DNA of 19,748 nt from Planctomycetota bacterium (lineage in GTDB: Bacteria; Planctomycetota; GCA-002687715; DRQF01). Each line of letters begins with the position of its first letter. The stretch's first letter is position 1. Made by a program: the position numbers and the translations under genes. The stretch covers positions 1-19,748 of the forward strand of contig JAZGFI010000141.1 in NCBI GenBank assembly GCA_036479435.1, given 5' to 3'. Below are positions 440-14,679 of the stretch, piece by piece. Below the pieces are notes generated by a model, which was not told where the DNA came from, searched no databases, and saw only the letters and a program-made list of their open reading frames with translations.

Positions 440-885
440 TCATGAGGCCTGGTTGTTGTCGGCAGGGGGATTCCTAAACGACGCTCCGGTCATGACAACG
501 ACGTGCGCGTGATGAAGCAGCCGGTCCATTGCGGCGGAGGCCATGAGGTCGGCAAGAAACATCGGGTACCACTCCTCGATCGCACGGTTTGAAGTAATGA
601 TGGTGGCTCCTCGTTCGTAGCGCGCCCTAATGATCTCGTACAGATCAATGGGCTCATCACCGCCAAGCGGTCGGAGCCCAAGATCTTCGACGATCAAAAG
701 ATCTGGTGCGGTGAAACGCAGCAGCTTTTTGTCGTAGCTTCGGTCGGCCCTGGCTGCCCTCAGCTCAGAGAGCATCCGATGAGCCGAGGTGTAGCAGACC
801 GCATGCCCGGCGCGGCATGCTCGCTCACCGATGGCTTGGGCTAGGTGGGATTTTCCGACACCGGGGGGTGGGACCGATGAAACCG
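440..885 (-). pseudogene. istB: IS21-family helper ATPase IstB, 5'-truncated and frameshifted remnant
   Basis: GVGKSHLAQAIG (Walker A), DLLIVEDLG (Walker B region), TIITSNR and DRLLHHA are typical IstB motifs. The N-terminal portion and istA are absent, and speA ends at 915. The upstream GFIGPT is in another frame, separated from GVGKS by 4 extra bases in a C-run. Confidence 0.85.
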
Positions 886-914
886 GTCGCATTGCGAATC
901 TACATTACGACCCA

Positions 915-2929: not shown

Positions 2930-5900
2930 TTAGAGTTCTCGCAGCGCAAATCGTCCATCAATCGCAGCTAGGATGGTCAGGTTCTTCCCCGCCAATTCTT
3001 GAAAGGAAACTAGCCCGCGACGGTCCGTGCTCCCCTGCGCCACGATTCGAGAACCGTTTCCAACCCGGACTTGGGCTCCAGAGACGACCTTGCCACTGGT
3101 GCGGTCTAGGACTCGGACTTGCAGATCTTTTCCATCACGTCGAACATCGAGTTCCAAGGCCGACACCAGCACCAAGCCCGTCTTGAACTGGCCGCCGCCT
3201 TCCACGACCACTAACCAGGCTCCCTCCTTGAGAACACCGAGATCGAGCTTCACGCGGCGCCGCTGGTAGGGCTTGGCGGGCCATTGCTTGACGTGGTCAC
3301 GGTCGGCGGCGATACCGGTCAGGTTGACGCGGTTGATGTTGCGCAGGCTTTTTCTGGTGGCGAACACCAAAGGCAAATCGACGGCGTAGAGCGAAGCCTT
3401 CACCTCGTTGACGTTCTTCAGCGCAAAGTCGAGCGAGACCTTTCCGGCTGGGGCCTGGTGGAGAGGGGAAAACTCAAGGACTCTTTCTTCAAGGAAATCC
3501 ACCGATCGGGCCGCGTCTGGAACCGATGAGGCCGCGGCCTTATAGAAAACGAGAGCTTCATCTAACTTGCCTTCAACCTCAGCGACTTTGCCGAGGTACC
3601 AGGCTGCAGATTCTGCGTGCTTGCAGTACCGACGATGCTTTGGCAGACCCCAAATTTTCTGCCGGAGCTGCCCTCCAATCGTTCGCACTTCCTTGTAGTC
3701 CGCGGCGAGATACGCCGCTTGCAGTCTCCAGAACTCCACCTGGGCCGCGCGGCCGTCTCGATAACCCAAAGCGGCGTAGTCGCGACCATCGCGGCGCAAG
3801 CGCTCGACGAAGCCAAGCCGACGTAAGCGGGCCAGTCTTTGGTAGCGAACCTCCGCAGATTCGGGACTCTCCGGGTGAAGGGCCAAGAAGCGGTCAAAGG
3901 CCAAAAGCCCCTCTTCCCAGTAATTTTTGCGGCTAACTAAGACGACGTCGAGGTCCTTCTTCGCAGGGTCGCGCGTCAACAGCAGACTCTCTGCCGCCTC
4001 AATCCAAGCCTGACGTGACGCGGGGTTTGAAGGGTGCCGCAGAATCGCATTGAGGACGTCGCGATTGGCCCGAGTCACTTCACCGGATTCAACTAGCGAC
4101 TGCCGCCAGACAAGCTCCCAATCGAATCTCGTCTCCAACAGATCAAGGTAGCGTCGCGCGGCCCGACCGAACTGTCTCTCGCTGGCGAACGCGCGGCCTA
4201 GGCGATGAAGGTCTCCGCTTTCAAGTTTGGGTTCTTCGAAACCGAGATCCGCGATCTCATCAAGCGTGCGCAAGCTCGCTTTGAACCGCCCGAGCTTGAG
4301 GTTCGCCACGAAGAGCTGTCGCAAAACCACGACCCGAACGGAGGTCAAAAGGTCGAGCGCGCCGAGTTCCGCCGCGAGCTTGGCGACGGACTCCCAGTCC
4401 TTGGCGTCCGCCGCTTTTTTGAACGCATCAAAGCGCTCATCAGGACTTGGTGCAGGGATCGCGACACGGCCTAAGCCGGCACTCCGGTTGAGGACCGTCA
4501 AAGAAACGTTTTCGCTGTGTCCACCCAGCTCGGGTTCAAAATCACCGCGAATTTCGGCTGGCAAGATTCGAAATTTCCCCGGCCATAACGCGTAGACCGA
4601 AATCGTGACGCGAGTTAGACCTTCGGGAATGGAATGCAGAGGCAAAACGATCTTCGATCCCTCAAAGCGTAAATTCGGCTGCTCACGAACGACTTCCGGA
4701 GAGAGCACCAGCCCGGTCGGCAATTCATCGACGATCGTGAAATCTGCCTGCAACTGATCGGATTCGATCTCCCACAGCAACTCATAGCGCTCGCCTTCGC
4801 GAAGCTCGGTCAAGCTGGGCGACAGCACGCGGTCAGGTCTGGACTCCGGTCGCAAGACGTTATTTCCGGGCTCGACCACCAAGTGCCGCTCGGAGGGTTT
4901 CCGCCAGGGGATGATCCGACGTCGGATCGAAACGCGATTGGACTTTGCCACGACTTGATCGGCATCGACCAGACAGTCGGCCACCCAGGTGAAGCGCATG
5001 CCCTCAAGACCCGGTGTTTGCAGGACGATTTCTTGTCCGCCTTTGGCGAACTTTGCAAAGGGGATCTCGGCCAAGGAACTCCCCGGCTTTGCCGAACTGA
5101 AGTCGATCGTCGCCAGACTCTTGCCGCCAACTCGAACGACGACTTGGCCAACCGCCGCACGCTGTGATTCGATCGACACGTAGTCCGCGAGCGCCGCGAT
5201 CACCGCCGCAGATTCTGCCATGCGACCATACAAGGGTCCGCGCCGCAGCGATCTTAAGTAGCGCACCAGACCTCGGGCGGAATCCGAGATACCCTCGGAC
5301 TTAACGATCGCCTTCAAGGCCCAAGCCGAAGCGATGACATCACTTTTACACCAGGGAACACGAGCGTTGCCGCGAGCCATTACCAGATCGCCGCGGCGAA
5401 CGAGTCTCCCCTTGAGCCGACGCAGAAAACGAGCGCTAAGGCTGGGTTGCTCAAGACGCTCTGCCGCCAGCACACTACGAGCGAGTCCCATCGCCGAAAG
5501 ACTGCGGTCTTCTCGCGTCATGCGTTCCAATGACTTCAAGGCCGATTTGCGGTTCGCAGTGGCGGCGAGGATGAGCGCCGCACGCGAGTCGCCGTCGAGG
5601 CGGCGTTTCAAAGATTCTTGCACCACGACGCGCGTTCGAAACAAGACCTCCACTACTTCGAGCAAGCCTAAAGAAGCTCCCGCTTCCAAAGTCTCCAGAG
5701 CGAAAGCAAGGTCTTCTGGACGCAGCGTGTCCTCACAAAGGCCTGCCGCGCGCCTTGAGGCCACAAGCTGCCGCAATCCCCGCTTGACCGTCTTCACGAG
5801 CGCGGACCGGACAAAAATCAGATTGGAGTCCTGAGTGTCGAGCGCCGCAAGAATTTGGGTCGCAACCCAGGTCTGGATCAAAGTGCGGTTGCGGAATCGG

Positions 5901-8900
5901 CCTCCACGTTTCGAAATCAGGGCCGCGAAGCCATCGGCCAGCTCATTGGCCGCCCCGGTGGAAATGGCAATCCGCAGGCTCCCCGAACCCGCAATCACAT
6001 CCGCCGGAATCTCAAACCTGAAGCGTTGGTCGCGCTGCAAAGTACCGCTTCCGCCGAAAGAAACGGGGCGGCCAAAAGGAGCCGAAAAGAGTGCGGTCGC
6101 CAAACGGTCTTCGCGCTTGCCGTTCTTCGCGGTGGCGGTTGCCAGTCCCGCGCCGATGGAACTCGCCTTCAATTCTCCGACGACGGTCTTGAATCCCGAA
6201 CGATCGAAACTCAGATCGCCATCACCCAACAACTTCAGCTCAAAAGTACCGTCGTCCATGCTGACGTCCAGGCCGACTTCGCTTCCGCTTTTCCCATGCC
6301 AGGAGACCTCCCAAGCGGCTTCAAATCGATCACCGACCAAAGCGCGCGGTGGTCCGACGAAACGCAGGGCGATCGGCTTCGCGACACGCAGCGTCGTGTC
6401 GCCACCACCGACTTGCGTCGAGGCCGTCGCGCCCACCGTGTGGACGCGCCAGGTCGTTAGGTTGTCGGGAAGATCGAAAGAGACGCGGCCTTTGCCCGAA
6501 GCGTCGGTCTTGAGCTGATGACGGTAATAGGCCAGGTCGAGAAATTTCCTCCGGGTTACCTCTCTTTTGCCGGACAGGGCTCGGTTGAAGATGTTCTCGG
6601 TGCGGGCTCGAAACTCGGTGTCACCGTTGTTGTTGAAGAAAGCCCCGGCGGTGAACTGTCTTGGCTCACCCAATAAACTTCTCTCTTTGCTACTGAGTCC
6701 CTCGCCCATGAACAGAACAGAGTTCTTAGATTGGGAGCGGAGCTCATCTCTCAGCGACATGCCCGCTGCTTTTCGAGCTCTCTTCTTGCCGCCGTGACGC
6801 CCGCCAAAAGCGCCGCCCGCTCCTCCGCCGAGACCGATCGCGGTGTTGGCGCTTGCCATCCCATCCGAAAGCGCATCCACCTCTTCGTCCATTTCCTCTT
6901 CGGCCATCAGTCCAAAGGCGGCGTCTTCTGCGCTGAATCCCCGAGCCGCTTTGCCACGCTCACGATCGCGTCTTTTGCGCTCATCAACAAGATCTTGATC
7001 CAACCACTCACTTCGTGAATGCGTACGCCAAGCGGCTGAGGACTTTGTTCTCACTCGGTGCGATCGGCGTTGACCGTAAAAGGTCGCACGAATGCCCTGG
7101 CTCAATTCCGGCGCCAATGACAAGACCGCCTCGTCCACAACTGTCATGACAAACTCGGCCTCAACGGGATTGCCCTGTTGATCGCGCGCGAGCACATCAA
7201 TGTTTACTTCTTGTCCGGGCTGAGGATTCTCAGGACTGACCTTCAAGGACAAATCCAGCCAGCGTCCTACCACGATCTCTTCTCGACTAGACCGCAAGCT
7301 TCCCCGATGGACCATGGAGGCCGACACCCATAGGTTCGGCGCCGCCCAGCTCTTGAGGGGCAGCTCAAGCGTCGACGATTTCTCACCGGGACGGTGAAGG
7401 CGATACCCGAGAATTTTTTCACCTTCGTAGGTGACGAGAACGGGACGCTCCAAAACCGGAACGTCTAAAACAAAGCGCGCCGTTTCACCTTCTCGCCACA
7501 CGAGTTTCTCCGCCGTCAGGCGCAAGTCGGCCTCGGCCTCGTAGCGCCGCGAGCGCACCGCGATCGACTTCGACGCGATGACTTTTCGATCGCCCTCTTG
7601 GCCCTCAAAAAGAAGTCGCAAGGACTCCACTTCAGGGACTTCGATCTTCAGGCGGGCCCGACCATCTGAGGCCGTCACGACGCTCCGGCGCTCGAGTTCC
7701 TCTTCTTCTTTGGCTCCGTCCCGGCGAACCATCACGCGCAAAAGGCCGGTCCTGGCCAGAGGTTCGTAACGCGAACCGGTGAGGATAATCTCAGCTTCTA
7801 ATTTATCGCCCGGACGGTATGCCCGGCGGCCCGCGCGGATAACCGCGTAGTAGGGAGCAAGACCAGCGGTGAACGACCCGAAAGCCGACTGAGGCTCGGT
7901 GCCGTCAAGCCTGGCCAAAACTTTGATGCCGTAGCGTTGGTCGCGATCCAAAAGGCCGGTGGCAACTCGAAAACGGTACTCGCCGTTCTTATCGCTAACA
8001 CCCTGGCCTCGCTTGACGTCCAGAGACATCGAGGGGCGCGGTCGCCGTTTTTTTTCTTCGAGCCAAGAAAAGGCCTCAAGCGGTGCGGCATCAAAGACGA
8101 AATCTTCGCGCCAGACGATCCAATCCAGCTGGACTCCCGCTCTGATCTGGCCCATGAAGTCTTTGGTGTTCACCACGACTTCCACATCTTCACCCGGCAC
8201 AGCAATGGGTCGGTCACTGAGCTGCGGTGTCACCGAAACTTTCAGCTCGGCTCTTTGGAAGGGCCGCAACTCAAACGCGATATTCCGACTCGATTGCCGG
8301 AAACGTACCGTGATCGTCTGTTCACCGATCTCGCCTTCGCTCGAAGTCTCAAACTCGGCCTCGAAAGACCCTGACTTGGCAAGGGCCACCGACCGTCGGG
8401 CCAAGATAATGCCGCTGGCAGCACGCCACTGAAGATCGACTTTGTCGGCCTCGTCAGGAAGTTCGTAACCATCGTCACCGCCGCGGCGAGCAAAGCCGAA
8501 CACTCGGATCGTCTGCCCGGGTCGATAAAGGGGGCGATCCGAGTCGCACCAAATGGTGTCGCGCCATGCGAAGACTTTTGCCTTTCGGGAACGCCCCACT
8601 GATTCGGCGCAGGCGGCATGAGCACCGTCAAGCGCCAAGACCTGGCGTCTGCGTATCTGGATGTCGACTTTGGTCAACAACACCCCGTCAGACCCAGTCT
8701 TGCCCTCAAAAACGACTTTTTTGCCGTCGCTGAGCAAGATGCGGGCGTTCGGGACCGGATCACCTGAGATTCGCTTCTGAACGAAGACAAGCATCTGCTC
8801 TTTGGCGTGTTTAACGGTAACTTGCAGATCACTGACGAGGACCGCGCGCTCGGCGCGGCGCACGCCGTCTTCTGCACTTACAAGATAAAGGCCGGGCTTC

Positions 8901-10753
8901 AGGGCCGCTTCGTCGTCGGCAAGGGCTAGAACACTCTTTGTTTCCAAATAGGGGCGGGGATCTTTAGGGCCGAGTTCCCAAGTTCGAAGCGGCTTCACGA
9001 GTTCGGTGTCGAGAGTCTCAAAACCCGACGCCACTCCCTTGCGACGAAACCAAGTCTCAAGGTTGACGGGGTGTATCCGCAGGGTTGCGCTCTTGACGTT
9101 GCGAAAAACGACTTCAATCTGCGCTTTAGTTCCGCCTTGAAGCTGGGAGTCTCCTCGCAGTTCAAGGACTTCCGACTGGAAAGTCTGGAGCAAGCGCCTT
9201 GCGGTTTTTGCGGATACGGTTGAGCCAAAACTCAGCAAGATTCGACGCAAGACTTTCACGCTGCCGTCGAGGTCGTGATCTTGGTGCTCCAGGACTGAGG
9301 CCAGGACCAAAAGACTCTTGGCTGCCGTGGCGGGATGAACTTTCGCGTAGCGATTCGCGGTCTCGCGGTAGAGTCGTTTGGCAACTTCGAATTGCTTCGC
9401 GCGTTCGGCCAGTTGGCCGAGGCCTAGCGACGCCATCGGGGCCATGCTCTTGGTGGGAAACAGCTCGAGGTAACGCGCCCACGCAGTTCTCGCCGCGTCG
9501 TAGTCTTTCGCGCGTTCGGCCGCCCGCGCCTCTTCGACGTACAAAAAGGGAACGCTTTGGGCCAAGCCGGGGCCGCGGGAGTCGTCGGGAAATTGCCTGA
9601 GAAAGGCATCGACGGCCGATCGGGCGCCGCTATAGTCTTGCCGGCTTTTTCTGAGTTCGACGATACCCGCGGCAATGGCTGGTGCCCTCGCCGTTTCTGC
9701 GTGGCTTTGGAGGTAGTCCCGCGAGGCTGTTTCTGCCGCCTCAACGTCGGGAATGGCTCGCTGGATGTCGATGATGGCGCTGCGGACCTCTTCTACCTTT
9801 TCGTGGCGCGGCTGTTCGGCGAGAAAGTTGTGCCATGCGGATAGCCCCGCTTCACGACCCTTCACCGAATTGGGCTTGGGCAGGCCATAACTCAGGCCCA
9901 AGTAGTAATGGAGGCCCGAGAACTCCGGTGCCTCCGCGCGCGGCCCCGCCTGCAAGGCGACGATGCCGGTTCGGGCGAGGTCTTTTTTTCCCTGGGCAAG
10001 GGCCGCACGAATCGCCAGGAGTCTCGCTCGACTAGCTAGTTCGGTTGTGAGTGCGGTGTCGCCAAGGAGTTCTTCCAGTTCCTTCACGGTCTTCAGCACT
10101 GCGGGGTGCTGTTTCAGGGAAAGTTGCGATTGCGCGATCTTAAAGAGCAATGGCCCTCGCTTTACGTCCTTGGCGCGGATGCGGCGCGCCTGATTTAGAA
10201 AGGTCAACGCACGATCGAATCGAGGTTCCCGTTTCGACGCGAAGAGGCCCTCCTCCGCTTTCGGGCTCAAGATGGCGTCAGCCATTTTCTCAAACCGGAG
10301 GGCGAGAGCTGCAAGGTGCTCCGGTGCCAGCGTTGCCGCAGAACTGCGCTCTAAGATTTGCGCCCCAAACTCAGCGTTTTTGCCTTCAAGACCCGCCTCC
10401 GCCAACAGGAACTGGGCTTGTGCTGTCCAGGCGCTGTCGACTTTCGATTCTTCGAGTCCGGCTTTTAGCCAATCAAAGGCCGCGTCGTGCTTCGACTGCA
10501 AAATTAAGGCTCGCGCCCTCAGAACGAGGACTTCGGCCTTCATTTCCGCGTTGATATCAGCTCGGTTGAGCACCTGAAGCTTACGGTCAGCCGCCGCATA
10601 CTGGCGGTTGGACAACAGGCGTCGCGCTTCCACGAGATCTTCGGCGGGTTCTGAGGTCCAAACGAGCCGCGCTTGCATCCAATCGTCCAGGCCAAAGCCG
10701 TAGGCGGATACGAGTATCAAGGAGAGGCAGAGAACGATCTTGCGAGAGCGCAT
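2930..10753 (-). CDS. Giant exported alpha-2-macroglobulin-like protein with N- and C-terminal TPR regions, 2607 aa
   Basis: Signal peptide MRSRKIVLCLSLILVSAYGFG, then TPR/BamD-like helices (FLAEQPRH, FLRQFPDD, YLELFPTK). Macroglobulin motifs: SDRPLYRPGQTI, VVDEAVLSL, KTDASGKGRVSFDLPDNLTTWRV and DELPTGL...PGKFRILPA. A second TPR block follows (FLALHPES). SD-like GGAG 7 nt before the ATG. No CxEQ thioester motif. Confidence 0.88.
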   Translation of the reverse strand: MRSRKIVLCLSLILVSAYGFGLDDWMQARLVWTSEPAEDLVEARRLLSNRQYAAADRKLQVLNRADINAEMKAEVLVLRARALILQSKHDAAFDWLKAGLEESKVDSAWTAQAQFLLAEAGLEGKNAEFGAQILERSSAATLAPEHLAALALRFEKMADAILSPKAEEGLFASKREPRFDRALTFLNQARRIRAKDVKRGPLLFKIAQSQLSLKQHPAVLKTVKELEELLGDTALTTELASRARLLAIRAALAQGKKDLARTGIVALQAGPRAEAPEFSGLHYYLGLSYGLPKPNSVKGREAGLSAWHNFLAEQPRHEKVEEVRSAIIDIQRAIPDVEAAETASRDYLQSHAETARAPAIAAGIVELRKSRQDYSGARSAVDAFLRQFPDDSRGPGLAQSVPFLYVEEARAAERAKDYDAARTAWARYLELFPTKSMAPMASLGLGQLAERAKQFEVAKRLYRETANRYAKVHPATAAKSLLVLASVLEHQDHDLDGSVKVLRRILLSFGSTVSAKTARRLLQTFQSEVLELRGDSQLQGGTKAQIEVVFRNVKSATLRIHPVNLETWFRRKGVASGFETLDTELVKPLRTWELGPKDPRPYLETKSVLALADDEAALKPGLYLVSAEDGVRRAERAVLVSDLQVTVKHAKEQMLVFVQKRISGDPVPNARILLSDGKKVVFEGKTGSDGVLLTKVDIQIRRRQVLALDGAHAACAESVGRSRKAKVFAWRDTIWCDSDRPLYRPGQTIRVFGFARRGGDDGYELPDEADKVDLQWRAASGIILARRSVALAKSGSFEAEFETSSEGEIGEQTITVRFRQSSRNIAFELRPFQRAELKVSVTPQLSDRPIAVPGEDVEVVVNTKDFMGQIRAGVQLDWIVWREDFVFDAAPLEAFSWLEEKKRRPRPSMSLDVKRGQGVSDKNGEYRFRVATGLLDRDQRYGIKVLARLDGTEPQSAFGSFTAGLAPYYAVIRAGRRAYRPGDKLEAEIILTGSRYEPLARTGLLRVMVRRDGAKEEEELERRSVVTASDGRARLKIEVPEVESLRLLFEGQEGDRKVIASKSIAVRSRRYEAEADLRLTAEKLVWREGETARFVLDVPVLERPVLVTYEGEKILGYRLHRPGEKSSTLELPLKSWAAPNLWVSASMVHRGSLRSSREEIVVGRWLDLSLKVSPENPQPGQEVNIDVLARDQQGNPVEAEFVMTVVDEAVLSLAPELSQGIRATFYGQRRSHRVRTKSSAAWRTHSRSEWLDQDLVDERKRRDRERGKAARGFSAEDAAFGLMAEEEMDEEVDALSDGMASANTAIGLGGGAGGAFGGRHGGKKRARKAAGMSLRDELRSQSKNSVLFMGEGLSSKERSLLGEPRQFTAGAFFNNNGDTEFRARTENIFNRALSGKREVTRRKFLDLAYYRHQLKTDASGKGRVSFDLPDNLTTWRVHTVGATASTQVGGGDTTLRVAKPIALRFVGPPRALVGDRFEAAWEVSWHGKSGSEVGLDVSMDDGTFELKLLGDGDLSFDRSGFKTVVGELKASSIGAGLATATAKNGKREDRLATALFSAPFGRPVSFGGSGTLQRDQRFRFEIPADVIAGSGSLRIAISTGAANELADGFAALISKRGGRFRNRTLIQTWVATQILAALDTQDSNLIFVRSALVKTVKRGLRQLVASRRAAGLCEDTLRPEDLAFALETLEAGASLGLLEVVEVLFRTRVVVQESLKRRLDGDSRAALILAATANRKSALKSLERMTREDRSLSAMGLARSVLAAERLEQPSLSARFLRRLKGRLVRRGDLVMARGNARVPWCKSDVIASAWALKAIVKSEGISDSARGLVRYLRSLRRGPLYGRMAESAAVIAALADYVSIESQRAAVGQVVVRVGGKSLATIDFSSAKPGSSLAEIPFAKFAKGGQEIVLQTPGLEGMRFTWVADCLVDADQVVAKSNRVSIRRRIIPWRKPSERHLVVEPGNNVLRPESRPDRVLSPSLTELREGERYELLWEIESDQLQADFTIVDELPTGLVLSPEVVREQPNLRFEGSKIVLPLHSIPEGLTRVTISVYALWPGKFRILPAEIRGDFEPELGGHSENVSLTVLNRSAGLGRVAIPAPSPDERFDAFKKAADAKDWESVAKLAAELGALDLLTSVRVVVLRQLFVANLKLGRFKASLRTLDEIADLGFEEPKLESGDLHRLGRAFASERQFGRAARRYLDLLETRFDWELVWRQSLVESGEVTRANRDVLNAILRHPSNPASRQAWIEAAESLLLTRDPAKKDLDVVLVSRKNYWEEGLLAFDRFLALHPESPESAEVRYQRLARLRRLGFVERLRRDGRDYAALGYRDGRAAQVEFWRLQAAYLAADYKEVRTIGGQLRQKIWGLPKHRRYCKHAESAAWYLGKVAEVEGKLDEALVFYKAAASSVPDAARSVDFLEERVLEFSPLHQAPAGKVSLDFALKNVNEVKASLYAVDLPLVFATRKSLRNINRVNLTGIAADRDHVKQWPAKPYQRRRVKLDLGVLKEGAWLVVVEGGGQFKTGLVLVSALELDVRRDGKDLQVRVLDRTSGKVVSGAQVRVGNGSRIVAQGSTDRRGLVSFQELAGKNLTILAAIDGRFALREL

Positions 10754-11965: not shown

Positions 11966-13342
11966 CTATCTGGGAAGCAGCGGCACCTCCATTGAGAAAT
12001 CCTGGCGTCGGTAGACGCAGCGTCCGTCCTTATTGACGCAGGTGTGGTAAAGGGCGTAGCCCTTGATGACACACTTATGAACTCTCGCCGGCGTGGAGAA
12101 TTCAAACTCAAGGACCCTGGTTTCGTCGGACTCAGCTTCCTTGGGGTTTTTGAACTCGATCTGACGCTGGGAAGTCATTCCAATGGAGTTTTTGGCGATC
12201 CAGATTCGCAAGGGATCGCCCTCATTGTTCCACTTGCCCTGCACGGGCGTCATGCGAATGTGGACGCGGACCGGTTGCCCGGCCTTGACCTTTGCGGGTA
12301 CCACCGTCCAGGTCATCGCGATCAAGCCCTCATCACGCGTCACTCGCCCTTTGGGATCTGGTTCTATTGAGTCAGATGCCGCCATGACGAACTTTCGGAA
12401 TGGCGGTGCCGTCTCTGCCCCGCTCAGTGCGACCCTTAGCTCAATTGCTGTCTCACCGCGTGCTTTGATTTCGGCGATGGCAGGGTCCACCCAGTCGTAG
12501 AACGGATAGGGCTTATTTTGTCGCGGCCCATACTGCTGGATGCGGCGTCGCCAAATGTATTGATTAGGGTCAGCTCCCAAGGCCGCCGTCCAATTCTTCA
12601 CCGCCTTGCCGAAGTCACCGGGTTGGGCGCCCGCGCTGTCAAATCGAGTTCGATAGGCCACGCCCAAGCGAAAGAGGATTTTGCCCCGACCAGAGGCTTG
12701 GCGAAGGGCACGGGCGTAAGACTTGATAGCGTCGTTGAGCGCGGCGTCATCTTGGCCCCACATCAAGGACTTGTCTCCAGCGGCAACGACCTTAGAGACG
12801 GTTCGGTCTGAAAACTCGGCGCGAAACTTCTTTGATTTTGTTGGTTTCTTTGGTGCCTCGAACTTCGTGTTCACAAATTCAGCGAGCCCACTCGGTCGCG
12901 GCTTTCGGCTTCGAACCACGCCGTGCTCATCGATCAAGATCGCAATGGGCACGGAAGCCAAGTTCAGACTCGTCACGGCGTCTTGAGCCAGCGGCCAAGA
13001 ATACTGACGCCACTGGGCATAGAGCCGCGCGCGCTCAGCATGCTGTTCTTGGACGACACCCAACACGACGAGTTGGCTAGACTTGAGAAAGGGTCTCGCC
13101 GCTTCATTCCACACGGGAATGATCCTTCGGCAACCAGCTCACCAAGACGCGAAGTGGAGCAAGAGAACTTTGCTGCCGCGAAAGTCGGAGAGCGCGATTC
13201 TCGAACCGTTTTGGACACTGGGGAGCACGAAGTCGGGATAAACCTCGCCCTGAACAGGTTGGTAAGACTTCTCCGTCAGTTGAGCGTGGGCGTTAGCAAG
13301 ACTGAATGCGAGCGCAGCGATAAGTGCGATGTACTTCGTCAC
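11966..13342 (-). CDS. Probable selenoprotein: exported thioredoxin-fold (TlpA/redoxin-like) oxidoreductase with a UxxC motif, a helical TPR-like middle and an nDsbD-like C-terminal domain, 458 aa with Sec at residue 68
   Basis: GTG at 13342 follows GGAGGT, and the signal peptide is MTKYIALIAALAFSLANAHA. The frame reads PDFVLPS...IALSDFRGSKVLLLHFASW-TGA(13139-13141)-AGCRRIIPVWNE and continues in frame into track ORF 11966..13114. Also present: SVPIAILIDEHGVVR (Trx cis-Pro strand) and C-terminal YHTCVNKDGRC. Confidence 0.85.
13092..13135 (-). promoter_or_regulatory. Bacterial SECIS-like stem-loop directly 3' of the in-frame UGA
   Basis: mRNA: UGA GCU GGU-UGCCG-AAGGA-UCAUUCC-[CGUGU]-GGAAUGA-AG-CGGCG-AG-ACC. 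The upper stem is a perfect 7 bp and the lower stems are UGCCG/CGGCG and GGU/ACC. The 5-nt apical loop has G at position 2 followed by U and starts after a 23-nt spacer from the UGA. Confidence 0.75.
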
Positions 13343-13420
13343 GGTGACCTCCGTCTTCGCCGGGGTCCACAGCATGACTCATTGCGGTGCCTCCGAACAG
13401 CACGATCTGACGAAATCAGG

Positions 13421-14557
13421 CTAGATCAGCTCCGCCGCCATATGCCGGCATCTATCCACCATCGAATCGACAGCGATGAGCTCAAGGTGGTCCATATCCA
13501 GCAACTCTTCTGCCGCCGATACTTTCCCCTCAATCTCGTGGGCGATCGCATCAGCAACGTGAAGTGCGGTCGCAATCCCCAGACGATCATCGGCAATCGA
13601 AGGCTCGTGGTGAAAGGCCACGCCCTGCACGACGGGATAGCGGAATCCCCAGTCACTAAGTAACAAGGCACCCAGCGCGCCGTGCGTCACGACACTGCCC
13701 GGCACATCGACAAGTTCGCGTTCCCGAGGAAGCCGGGACGCCATCATCAACTTGCCCACGTCGTGCATCATCCCCGCGACGAAAGCATCATCACCCTGCA
13801 GTCGGTCGTTCTCGAACATGTCGCGTGCGATGACGCCGACGAGTGAGCTGTGATCGTTGAAGCTATCCAGCGAAAATTCCGTATGCTTGGCAACCGGAAA
13901 AGCGGCTGCAACCTCTAAGCTCAAGACGACACTGGCAACCATCCGGGCTCCCATGAAGCTGATGGCGTGCTGAACCGTTTGCAATTCAGTTCGCATCGGA
14001 AACCGCGACGAGTTGGCCATCGCCAGCAGCTTGGCGCTAATCGCGACGTCTTTTTCGACAATTTCCCCAACGTCTCCCAACCCCATTCCCGGATCGCCCA
14101 AGGCGAGCATGAGTTGACCATAGATCTTGGGCTGAACCGGCAAGTCGCCGATTTTCTCCACCAAGACACAGACTTCGGCGCCTCGGATGAGAGCATGAAG
14201 CTCGCAGGACCGAAAGATCACCCGGAGAAGCTCATCCATCTCGCAGCGCTTGAGAACGAACTGGTGGGCCACGGCCGTCGCCCGAAGAGGAGCGTCGTCC
14301 TTCATGGTGTCCGACATCACGATACGGACGACATCGGGGTGCTCATCCCGGACTTTCCTGAGGAGCATCGCCCCGTCCATGTCCGGCATGTGAAGGGCCG
14401 AGATGACGGCGCAAAAAGGAGCGCGCTCTATTTCTTTGAGCGCTGCCATTCCGCTGCCTACGAACACCAACTCCCACTCATCTTTGAACTCTTCGAGAGA
14501 GGATTCGACCCAATTCAAATACTCCTGATCATCATCGACAAAGAGCAAGCGCATCAT
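13421..14557 (-). CDS. REC-HDOD signalling protein with a degenerate receiver domain, about 378 aa
   Basis: The N-terminal MRLLFVDDD...MPDMDGAMLL...PDVVRIVMS is a receiver domain. The HDOD domain shows LPVQP, KDVAISAKLLAMANS, GMMHDVGKL, WGF and FHHEP. Start moved to ATG 14557 (or 14554) after an AAAGGA SD; the track's 33-aa extension looks spurious. Confidence 0.88.
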   Translation of the reverse strand: MMRLLFVDDDQEYLNWVESSLEEFKDEWELVFVGSGMAALKEIERAPFCAVISALHMPDMDGAMLLRKVRDEHPDVVRIVMSDTMKDDAPLRATAVAHQFVLKRCEMDELLRVIFRSCELHALIRGAEVCVLVEKIGDLPVQPKIYGQLMLALGDPGMGLGDVGEIVEKDVAISAKLLAMANSSRFPMRTELQTVQHAISFMGARMVASVVLSLEVAAAFPVAKHTEFSLDSFNDHSSLVGVIARDMFENDRLQGDDAFVAGMMHDVGKLMMASRLPRERELVDVPGSVVTHGALGALLLSDWGFRYPVVQGVAFHHEPSIADDRLGIATALHVADAIAHEIEGKVSAAEELLDMDHLELIAVDSMVDRCRHMAAELI

Positions 14558-14679
14558 TCCATTCCTTTGGTCCACGTGCGGGGCGGGATCGCTCGGGACA
14601 CGGCATTGAGAGCAGGCCCCAACGGCACCCAGCGCATCGAGGTCAGAAATGGCCAATGAACCATCTCGGATCTGTACTT

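Follow-up and report, generated by a model that had tools for sequence, protein, structure and literature searches.

An in-frame UGA very probably encodes selenocysteine in an exported three-domain redoxin of a planctomycete

A Redoxin Gene Interrupted by a Single UGA

The window analyzed here, 19,748 nucleotides of contig JAZGFI010000141.1 from a Planctomycetota bacterium (assembly GCA_036479435.1), carries a gene for a predicted exported redoxin whose reading frame is interrupted once, by a TGA. Comparison with related loci, a downstream hairpin and the gene content of the genome all point to this UGA as the selenocysteine (Sec, U) codon of one genuine Sec-decoding gene, a reading to which we give a probability of roughly 93%. 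On the minus strand the frame runs from ATG 13375 to a TAG stop (11968..11966), and the TGA at 13141..13139 (codon 79) is the sole interruption, with ...LLLHFASW-U-AGC-RRIIPVWNE as the active-site text across it. Genetic code table 11 splits the gene into a 78-aa open reading frame (ORF; 13375..13139) and a 382-aa ORF from GTG 13114, which comes eight sense codons past the TGA.

An earlier sequence-only reading of this window had noticed that the two ORFs share a frame and are separated by TGA plus eight sense codons, which translation bears out. It had also placed the TGA at the first Cys position of the WCxxC motif of TlpA and thioredoxin-type proteins, in agreement with the structural model described below, where U79-A-G-C82 stands at the start of helix 80-98, at the site of the C-x-x-C redox pair. 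Its proposal of one 458-aa selenoprotein divided by gene callers is supported as well: the product has 458 aa when counted from GTG 13342, an alternative start with GGAGG 5 nt upstream, and 469 aa from ATG 13375. The TGA site that it pointed to is real, but the location has to be corrected in that the gene lies on the minus strand. The codon itself was confirmed by independent assemblies: contigs built from four public runs (one of them possibly the source of this DNA) cover it and show no differing letter.

Conservation of the UGA Codon in Related Loci

Eight full-length orthologues were recovered among 61 related genomes, at 37-44% identity, and exactly one TGA was present in 8/8. A sample of 401 genomes from across the phylum yielded 41 matches at E<=1e-30 in 40 genomes, and 38 of the 41 contained one TGA. 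In two of the three TGA-less matches a W-U-A-G-C lies a short way upstream of where the match begins, set off by a longer linker. The third (L141, G046:C12:47800-50300) is a partial duplicate, near-identical to the intact gene L026 and 6 kb downstream of it, and its N-terminal part with the Sec site is missing. All 31 orthologous loci that were fetched carry the TGA within W-U-[AV]-G-C, and the alignment of their 31 protein sequences is invariant at A76 and W78 before the codon and at G81, C82, R83, P87 and W89 after it.

To these loci we added a scan of one genome per species, which used two patterns and was free of bias towards TGA because one of them was written with a Cys codon at the Sec column. 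At least 599 pattern matches were obtained and at least 527 were confirmed; the codon counts rest on the 80 loci kept from these, and the TGA stood in the W-U-[AV]-G-C motif in 80/80. Their labels include Pirellulaceae, Planctomycetaceae, Isosphaeraceae, Gemmatales, Phycisphaerae and many Acidobacteriota, with further loci from Verrucomicrobiota, Poribacteria, Anaerolineae and other groups. Binning errors may lie behind a few of the labels (Enterobacteriaceae, Alcaligenaceae and metagenome-assembled genomes of Actinomycetota). A third scan, of metagenomes, was seeded with the rare Ser-type relatives and gave 80 loci, 79 of them parsable; 77 were TGA forms in the Sec motif and two were Ser forms. 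The sequence-only reading had proposed to check whether homologues have TGA or Cys at this column, with conservation on both sides of it; TGA in a conserved context is the pattern found in each of the three sets of loci.

A Covarying Hairpin Downstream of the UGA

The coding sequence just past the UGA folds into a hairpin of the kind expected for a selenocysteine insertion sequence (SECIS). The stem UCAUUCC/GGAAUGA (13122..13116 with 13110..13104) closes a CGUGU loop (13115..13111) that starts 23 nt after the A of the UGA. The two-tier hairpin of the sequence-only reading is present in this sequence, but its upper part alone is conserved; the lower tier (GCCG/CGGC, 13131..13128 with 13101..13098) does not appear in the RNAalifold consensus of 31 relatives. 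By itself the upper hairpin folds at -7.6 kcal/mol (z -2.45), and with the lower tier added the value is -14.3 kcal/mol (z -2.38). As a fold of this single sequence the hairpin is modestly unusual, with 9 of 200 shuffles of a 72-nt stretch folding equally well, and it rises above chance because it is conserved and covaries across relatives.

When the TGA and a further 63 nt of each of the 31 loci were aligned without gaps, the RNAalifold consensus consisted of six pairs (columns 21-26 with 32-37) around a 5-nt loop. Pairing was possible in 88% of cells, versus 25-51% when the partner was slid by 1-3 columns. Compensatory double changes occurred at three of the six pairs, with both sides changed in 18 cells, and the covariation score was reached by 0/500 shuffles. 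A larger set of 109 distinct sequences from 111 loci gave the same picture, the five inner pairs forming in 108-109 of the 109 sequences and the sixth in 94. The loops in this set were CGGGU (45), CGUGU (29) and GGUCU (29), the rest being rare variants, and G occupied loop position 2 in 108/109.

The stem also leaves its mark on codon choice. Residue +7 (Val/Ile/Leu) and residue +11 (His/Asn/Gln/Tyr/Asp) have codons that are reverse complements of each other, as GTG/CAC in 77 of the 109 sequences, ATT/AAT in 7, CTG/CAG in 6, GTA/TAC in 2, and ATA/TAT, GTT/AAC, GTC/GAC and ATC/GAT once each. The gene in the window has ATT/AAT, encoding I86 and N90, and both amino acids change together among relatives. 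This codon mirror is the clearest sign of selection at the RNA level, and reverse-complement codons kept four residues apart despite amino-acid changes make it a teaching example of RNA constraint within a coding region.

The rules for bacterial SECIS (bSECIS) elements given in PMC13188914 are a loop of 3-9 nt with a G among its first two nucleotides, a stem of 4-16 bp, a UGA-to-loop distance of 16-37 nt and a minimum free energy <= -7.5 kcal/mol. The hairpin lies within every one of these limits, with a 5-nt loop that has its G at position 2, a 7-bp stem, a distance of 23 nt and -7.6 kcal/mol. A metagenomic subgroup of loci (L147, L150-L155, L157, L160 and L161) reads W-U-[SRVTA]-G-C-R-Q-[AT]-V-P-[AV]-W-[ND] at the active site, and of the six family positions only 4 are paired in the sequence that follows, GCCGUGCC-GGCCU-GGAAC; this subgroup may use a shifted or different hairpin.

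Selenocysteine Machinery in the Genome

The genome (5.47 Mb, 299 contigs, 92% complete) contains selA, selB, selC and selD, the set whose presence the sequence-only reading had named as a check on its proposal. The tRNA-Sec scored 67 bits versus a cut-off of 47 and has the anticodon TCA according to ARAGORN; SelA (1.1e-138), SelD (3.3e-111) and SelB (357 bits summed, contig C237) were all over their curated cut-offs. With this machinery, SelB-GTP-Sec-tRNA(Sec) would bind the hairpin loop, with its conserved G at position 2 and U at position 5, while the ribosome pauses at the UGA, and would insert Sec to give a precursor of 458-469 residues.

The genes for SelA, SelD and tRNA-Sec are consecutive on contig C117:33648-36014 (-), with SelB elsewhere. 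There is one in-frame TGA inside selD, so that the SelD of this genome is probably itself a selenoprotein. A single in-frame TGA was likewise present in each of dozens of weaker redoxin-like matches from this genome and related ones (in this genome, for example, C170:21917-22339, C290:108-455 and C112:6291-6842), which suggests that there are many thioredoxin-fold selenoproteins in this phylum.

Domain Architecture and Possible Function

The features of the gene and its product are collected in Table 1. The protein was modeled with AlphaFold2 on the 31-sequence alignment, with Cys in place of Sec, and the full-length model had a predicted local distance difference test (pLDDT) value of 90.2 and a predicted template modeling score (pTM) of 0.87. 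A predicted signal peptide, which would be cleaved between A-H-A and Q, precedes a redoxin domain that matches AhpC-TSA (PF00578, 39.2 bits vs a cut-off of 26) and Redoxin (PF08534, 30.0 vs 26.6) over residues 43-159; the two families also match 30/31 and 29/31 relatives, respectively. Foldseek placed this domain with ResA, DsbE and other thiol-disulfide oxidoreductases (TMt 0.74-0.81, E 1e-8 to 3e-9), including ResA 1st9_A (TMt 0.80, root-mean-square deviation 2.5 over 136 columns) and 4grf (TMt 0.81).

Table 1. Features of the putative selenoprotein gene and of its product, in window coordinates.
Feature	Position	Strand	Basis
Whole selenoprotein gene	11966..13375	-	Single frame, one in-frame TGA, 31 orthologues aligned full-length
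UGA, probable selenocysteine codon, residue 79, in W-U-A-G-C	13139..13141	-	Same column in related loci
Conserved predicted SECIS hairpin, 5-nt loop on a stem of 7 bp, 6 of them conserved	13104..13122	-	Fold, consensus, covariation
Two-tier form of the hairpin, lower GCCG/CGGC stem added	13098..13131	-	In this sequence, absent from 31-relative consensus
Predicted signal peptide, residues 1-31, ...ALAFSLANAHA/Q	13283..13375	-	Hydrophobic helix 10-31, low N-terminal pLDDT
Redoxin domain (TlpA/ResA-like thioredoxin fold), residues 43-159	12899..13249	-	Pfam, Foldseek
Helical TPR-like middle domain, residues ~191-305	12461..12805	-	Helices in model
Most conserved motif, Y273-IWRRRIQQYGPRxxKPYxFYx-W295	12491..12559	-	Invariant columns, 31 sequences
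C-terminal Ig-like beta-sandwich, residues ~350-469	11969..12328	-	Domain model

A linker that is poorly ordered in the model joins the redoxin to a helical TPR-like domain. TPR families match 18-20 of the 31 family members, but not this protein. The helical domain ends in the invariant Y273-W295 motif, which contains YIWRRRIQQYGP; its invariant columns in the 31 sequences are Y273, I274, R277, R278, Q281, G283, P284, K288, P289, Y290, F292 and W295. The C-terminal domain, modeled alone, reached a pLDDT of 95.3 and resembles generic Ig-like/MG domains with Z up to 9.4 (Foldseek, VIA), and a profile of it had no match among PDB sequences (best E 0.98). Two cysteines, C446-x6-C453, flank its last beta-hairpin, and both are >=90% conserved in the 31 Sec forms. 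Scans of this protein and the 31 relatives found no Pfam or NCBIfam model of the family's own.

This architecture would be compatible with an exported reductase. The signal peptide would direct the protein across the cytoplasmic membrane, where, by analogy with the enzyme class, the U79 selenolate could attack a disulfide or oxidized sulfur of an exported client protein, C82 could resolve the resulting selenenylsulfide, and the oxidized U-C pair could be re-reduced by a membrane shuttle of the CcdA/DsbD type. More speculatively, the TPR-like domain with its invariant basic YIWRRRIQQYGP motif might dock the client, and the C-x6-C pair might serve structurally, as a staple, or be the partner of U-x-x-C in an internal relay.

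Points Against the Sec Reading and Alternative Interpretations

Some observations weigh against assigning Sec to the UGA. The energy of the hairpin is only 0.1 kcal/mol past the -7.5 kcal/mol threshold, and within a 24-nt window 11 of the 109 relatives fall short of it, the other 98 satisfying it. Rfam, searched with the complete window at E<=10, gave no SECIS or other relevant family. The two innermost pairs of the stem coincide with the codons of Pro87 and Trp89, which are possibly kept for protein reasons, Trp89 being retained even in Ser-type relatives; and of the two Ser-type loci available for comparison (L146 and L144), one keeps the hairpin with 6/6 pairs and the other forms 2/6. Furthermore, a look for expression listed no RNA run, and no conserved neighbour was found within 1.5 kb among the two longest flanking frames per side at the 31 loci (112 frames).

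The alternative that survives best accepts the selenoprotein and concerns what it does. It could act as a peroxidase or sulfenate reductase, with a role as a periplasmic antioxidant, and not as a reductase of client disulfides. AhpC/TSA is its best Pfam family, 7/31 relatives have a weak GSHPx match, and Sec is described in PMC13188914 as resisting irreversible oxidation in antioxidant enzymes. The peroxiredoxin motif given there, PxxxTxxU/C, in which the second residue of the pair is the reactive one, is absent from this protein, where the corresponding text is HFASW-U-AGC, with Sec first in W-U-A-G-C and no preceding Pro-x3-Thr. Taken together with closest solved folds that belong to thiol-disulfide oxidoreductases and not to peroxiredoxins, these differences make this alternative unlikely.

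Translation could also stop at the UGA, leaving a functional 382-aa protein made from GTG 13114 and a separate small ORF in the 78 upstream codons. The position of this GTG so shortly after the TGA and the hundreds of database entries that begin there speak for such an arrangement, but a protein starting at GTG 13114 would have its thioredoxin fold cut in the middle of the first helix and would have no signal peptide, and protein-level conservation extends over the 78 upstream codons with the active-site flank. We consider this arrangement highly improbable.

An in-frame TGA is by itself silent on the residue inserted, and the genome and its relatives contain many other redoxin-like frames with a single TGA, as would be seen if TGA were read as Trp or Gly after a genome-wide reassignment or were passed by SECIS-independent read-through. 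Such decoding is barely credible given that the neighboring genes of 2607, 943 and 648 codons are open under table 11 with no TGA inside and that TGA is the terminator in 5/9 of the first orthologues; the in-frame codon moreover always falls at the redox-active position, is followed by the covarying hairpin and occurs in a genome with the full Sec machinery. Finally, a CxxC redoxin gene left as a pseudogene by a nonsense mutation, or seemingly so through an error of sequencing or assembly, would account for the two ORFs seen by gene callers and for databases carrying the 382-aa fragment only, but it is a negligible explanation for a TGA shared by related loci of several phyla, in a frame conserved on both sides and identical in the contigs of four runs, with no C-x-x-C relative seen in the loci and database relatives searched.

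Comparison with Known Systems

With Sec as the preferred reading, the closest counterparts are the UxxC thioredoxin-fold selenoproteins catalogued in Table 1 of PMC13188914, where examples include a 'Prx-like thiol:disulfide oxidoreductase' along with a 'Thiol-disulfide isomerase-like protein' and a 'UGC-containing TlpA family'. This kind of protein is therefore already known, and the gene studied here is a real but fairly ordinary bacterial selenoprotein in kind, from a family that is large and whose three-domain form has no model of its own. Shared with the entries of that table are a thioredoxin fold of the AhpC-TSA/Redoxin type, Sec first in U-x-x-C, a bSECIS after the UGA and the status of a prediction; judged by the descriptions in the table, the differences are the length of ~460 residues, the TPR-like part with YIWRRRIQQYGP and the Ig-like domain with C-x6-C. 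In addition, PMC4807772 reports 'thiol-disulfide isomerase-like thioredoxin' selenoprotein candidates without SECIS in a planctomycete, which may or may not belong to the same family. Active-site peptides (e.g., FASWUAGC) and WRRRIQQYGP had no occurrence in a full-text literature search.

The best NCBIfam match was NF041054, 'ResA-like WAxxUGC motif-containing protein' (WAxxUGC_long), a curated ResA-like selenoprotein family that has a long extension, as here. Membership in this family was rejected at 57.6 bits vs a cut-off of 300, with the redoxin domain alone aligned (profile 83-206 of 354). Compared with the ResA, TlpA and CcmG (DsbE) reductases, the protein has the same fold, export signal and active-site position. 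It also has a nearly invariant V-P pair, V142 P143, which we take to lie at the cis-proline loop position of the ResA/TlpA-type fold. Unlike these reductases, it has Sec for the nucleophilic Cys, an A-G dipeptide between the redox residues, an invariant Q-E-Q-H (109-112) after strand 3 and two extra fused domains.

The hairpin is similar to E. coli fdhF-type SECIS elements and the bSECIS consensus in lying in the coding region directly downstream of the UGA, in its small apical loop with an early G followed by G/U, and in a spacing within 16-37 nt. It differs from them in showing no evident bulged U, in its short stem of six conserved pairs, in the lack of an Rfam match and in a loop consensus of CGKGU or GGUCU.

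The C-terminal domain, an Ig-like beta-sandwich with a Cys pair across the C-terminal beta-hairpin, may resemble the alpha domain of DsbD (DsbD_N, PF11412). An hhalign comparison of the family profile with the genome's own DsbD_N domain gave one colinear stretch of 102 columns in which both Cys coincide, at a probability of only 6%. The DsbD_N model (cut-off 25 bits) had no match to this protein at E<=1 and matched 2/31 relatives with a best E of 0.048, and no DsbD chain was among the 50 matches listed by three fold searches. The DsbD-alpha likeness is unproven and serves as a lead only. A six-frame scan of the genome with DsbD_N had a sole match, C271:83605-83937 (-), at 37.5 bits within an 898-codon open frame; its product is a candidate electron shuttle of the DsbD/ScsB type and could serve redoxins that are exported, such as this one.

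Database Representation and Ser- and Cys-Containing Relatives

In current collections the gene is represented almost entirely by its downstream part. A 90%-identity collection held 2068 relatives, and the best 120 of these cover 77-83% of the query, that is, the post-TGA part alone; the named entries among them are called 'hypothetical protein' or 'TPR repeat protein'. An exhaustive search of 50%-identity representatives gave 8317 relatives, 312 of them at E<=1e-30, and among the best 150 of the 8317 there were 143 that begin past the TGA and seven of full length. Six doubtful entries that we inspected all start past the TGA, four of them at M/V-P-x-W. A query of residues 35-170 returned 37 matches, with none extending upstream of the TGA. 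The gene and its many relatives thus stand in the databases wrongly, as truncated proteins called 'hypothetical' or 'TPR repeat', and reading the UGA as Sec would give an exported redox enzyme back to genomes labelled Planctomycetota, Acidobacteriota, Verrucomicrobiota and others.

The seven full-length relatives without TGA (P0174, P0179, P0189, P0190, P0200, P0244 and P0260) have S..C (four), C..S (one) or S..S (two) at columns 79 and 82. C453 is lost in 7/7 of them and C446 in 5/7. The sequence-only reading had named Cys in homologues as the alternative to TGA; no C-x-x-C form was seen in ~190 loci, in the best 150 of the 8317 relatives or in the 37 matches to the N-terminal query, and the full-length relatives offered one C-x-x-S form and six with Ser at the column. 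Within what was searched, this is apparently a three-domain family without a Cys-for-Sec form. If that absence is true, the family would be a good system for studying what Sec does that Cys cannot.

These two mildly unusual traits, the apparent lack of a C-x-x-C form and the loss of the C-terminal Cys together with Sec in the rare Ser forms, would both fit a family that is obligately dependent on Sec and works as a self-contained periplasmic relay. Electrons would pass between U-x-x-C and the C-x6-C of the protein's own Ig-like (DsbD-alpha-like) domain, the two being held by the TPR-like domain and YIWRRRIQQYGP. We put this forward as a tentative idea with the odds against it.

Genomic Neighborhood and Other Genes in the Window

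The gene nearest to the start of the selenoprotein gene, at 13421-14656 (-), encodes a response-regulator receiver together with HDOD and HD domains and ends 45 nt upstream of the ATG. Its pairing with the selenoprotein gene was not seen at the other 30 loci, where the neighbors are unrelated (L-PSP, rhodanese, FG-GAP, kinases, permeases and others). On the other side, the 2607-aa ORF at 2930-10753 (-) contains MG2, bMG3, A2M_BRD and A2M domains and a TPR match, and encodes a giant bacterial alpha-2-macroglobulin-like protein. Inside this gene a weak match to the Rfam family CRISPR-DR33 (7910-7944, +), with 28.7 bits vs a gathering score of 39, is probably due to chance. Close to the window's first position, a 150-aa ORF at 440-892 (-) has a C-terminal IstB_IS21 match only (profile 99-232 of 238) and looks like the remnant of an IS21 helper gene.

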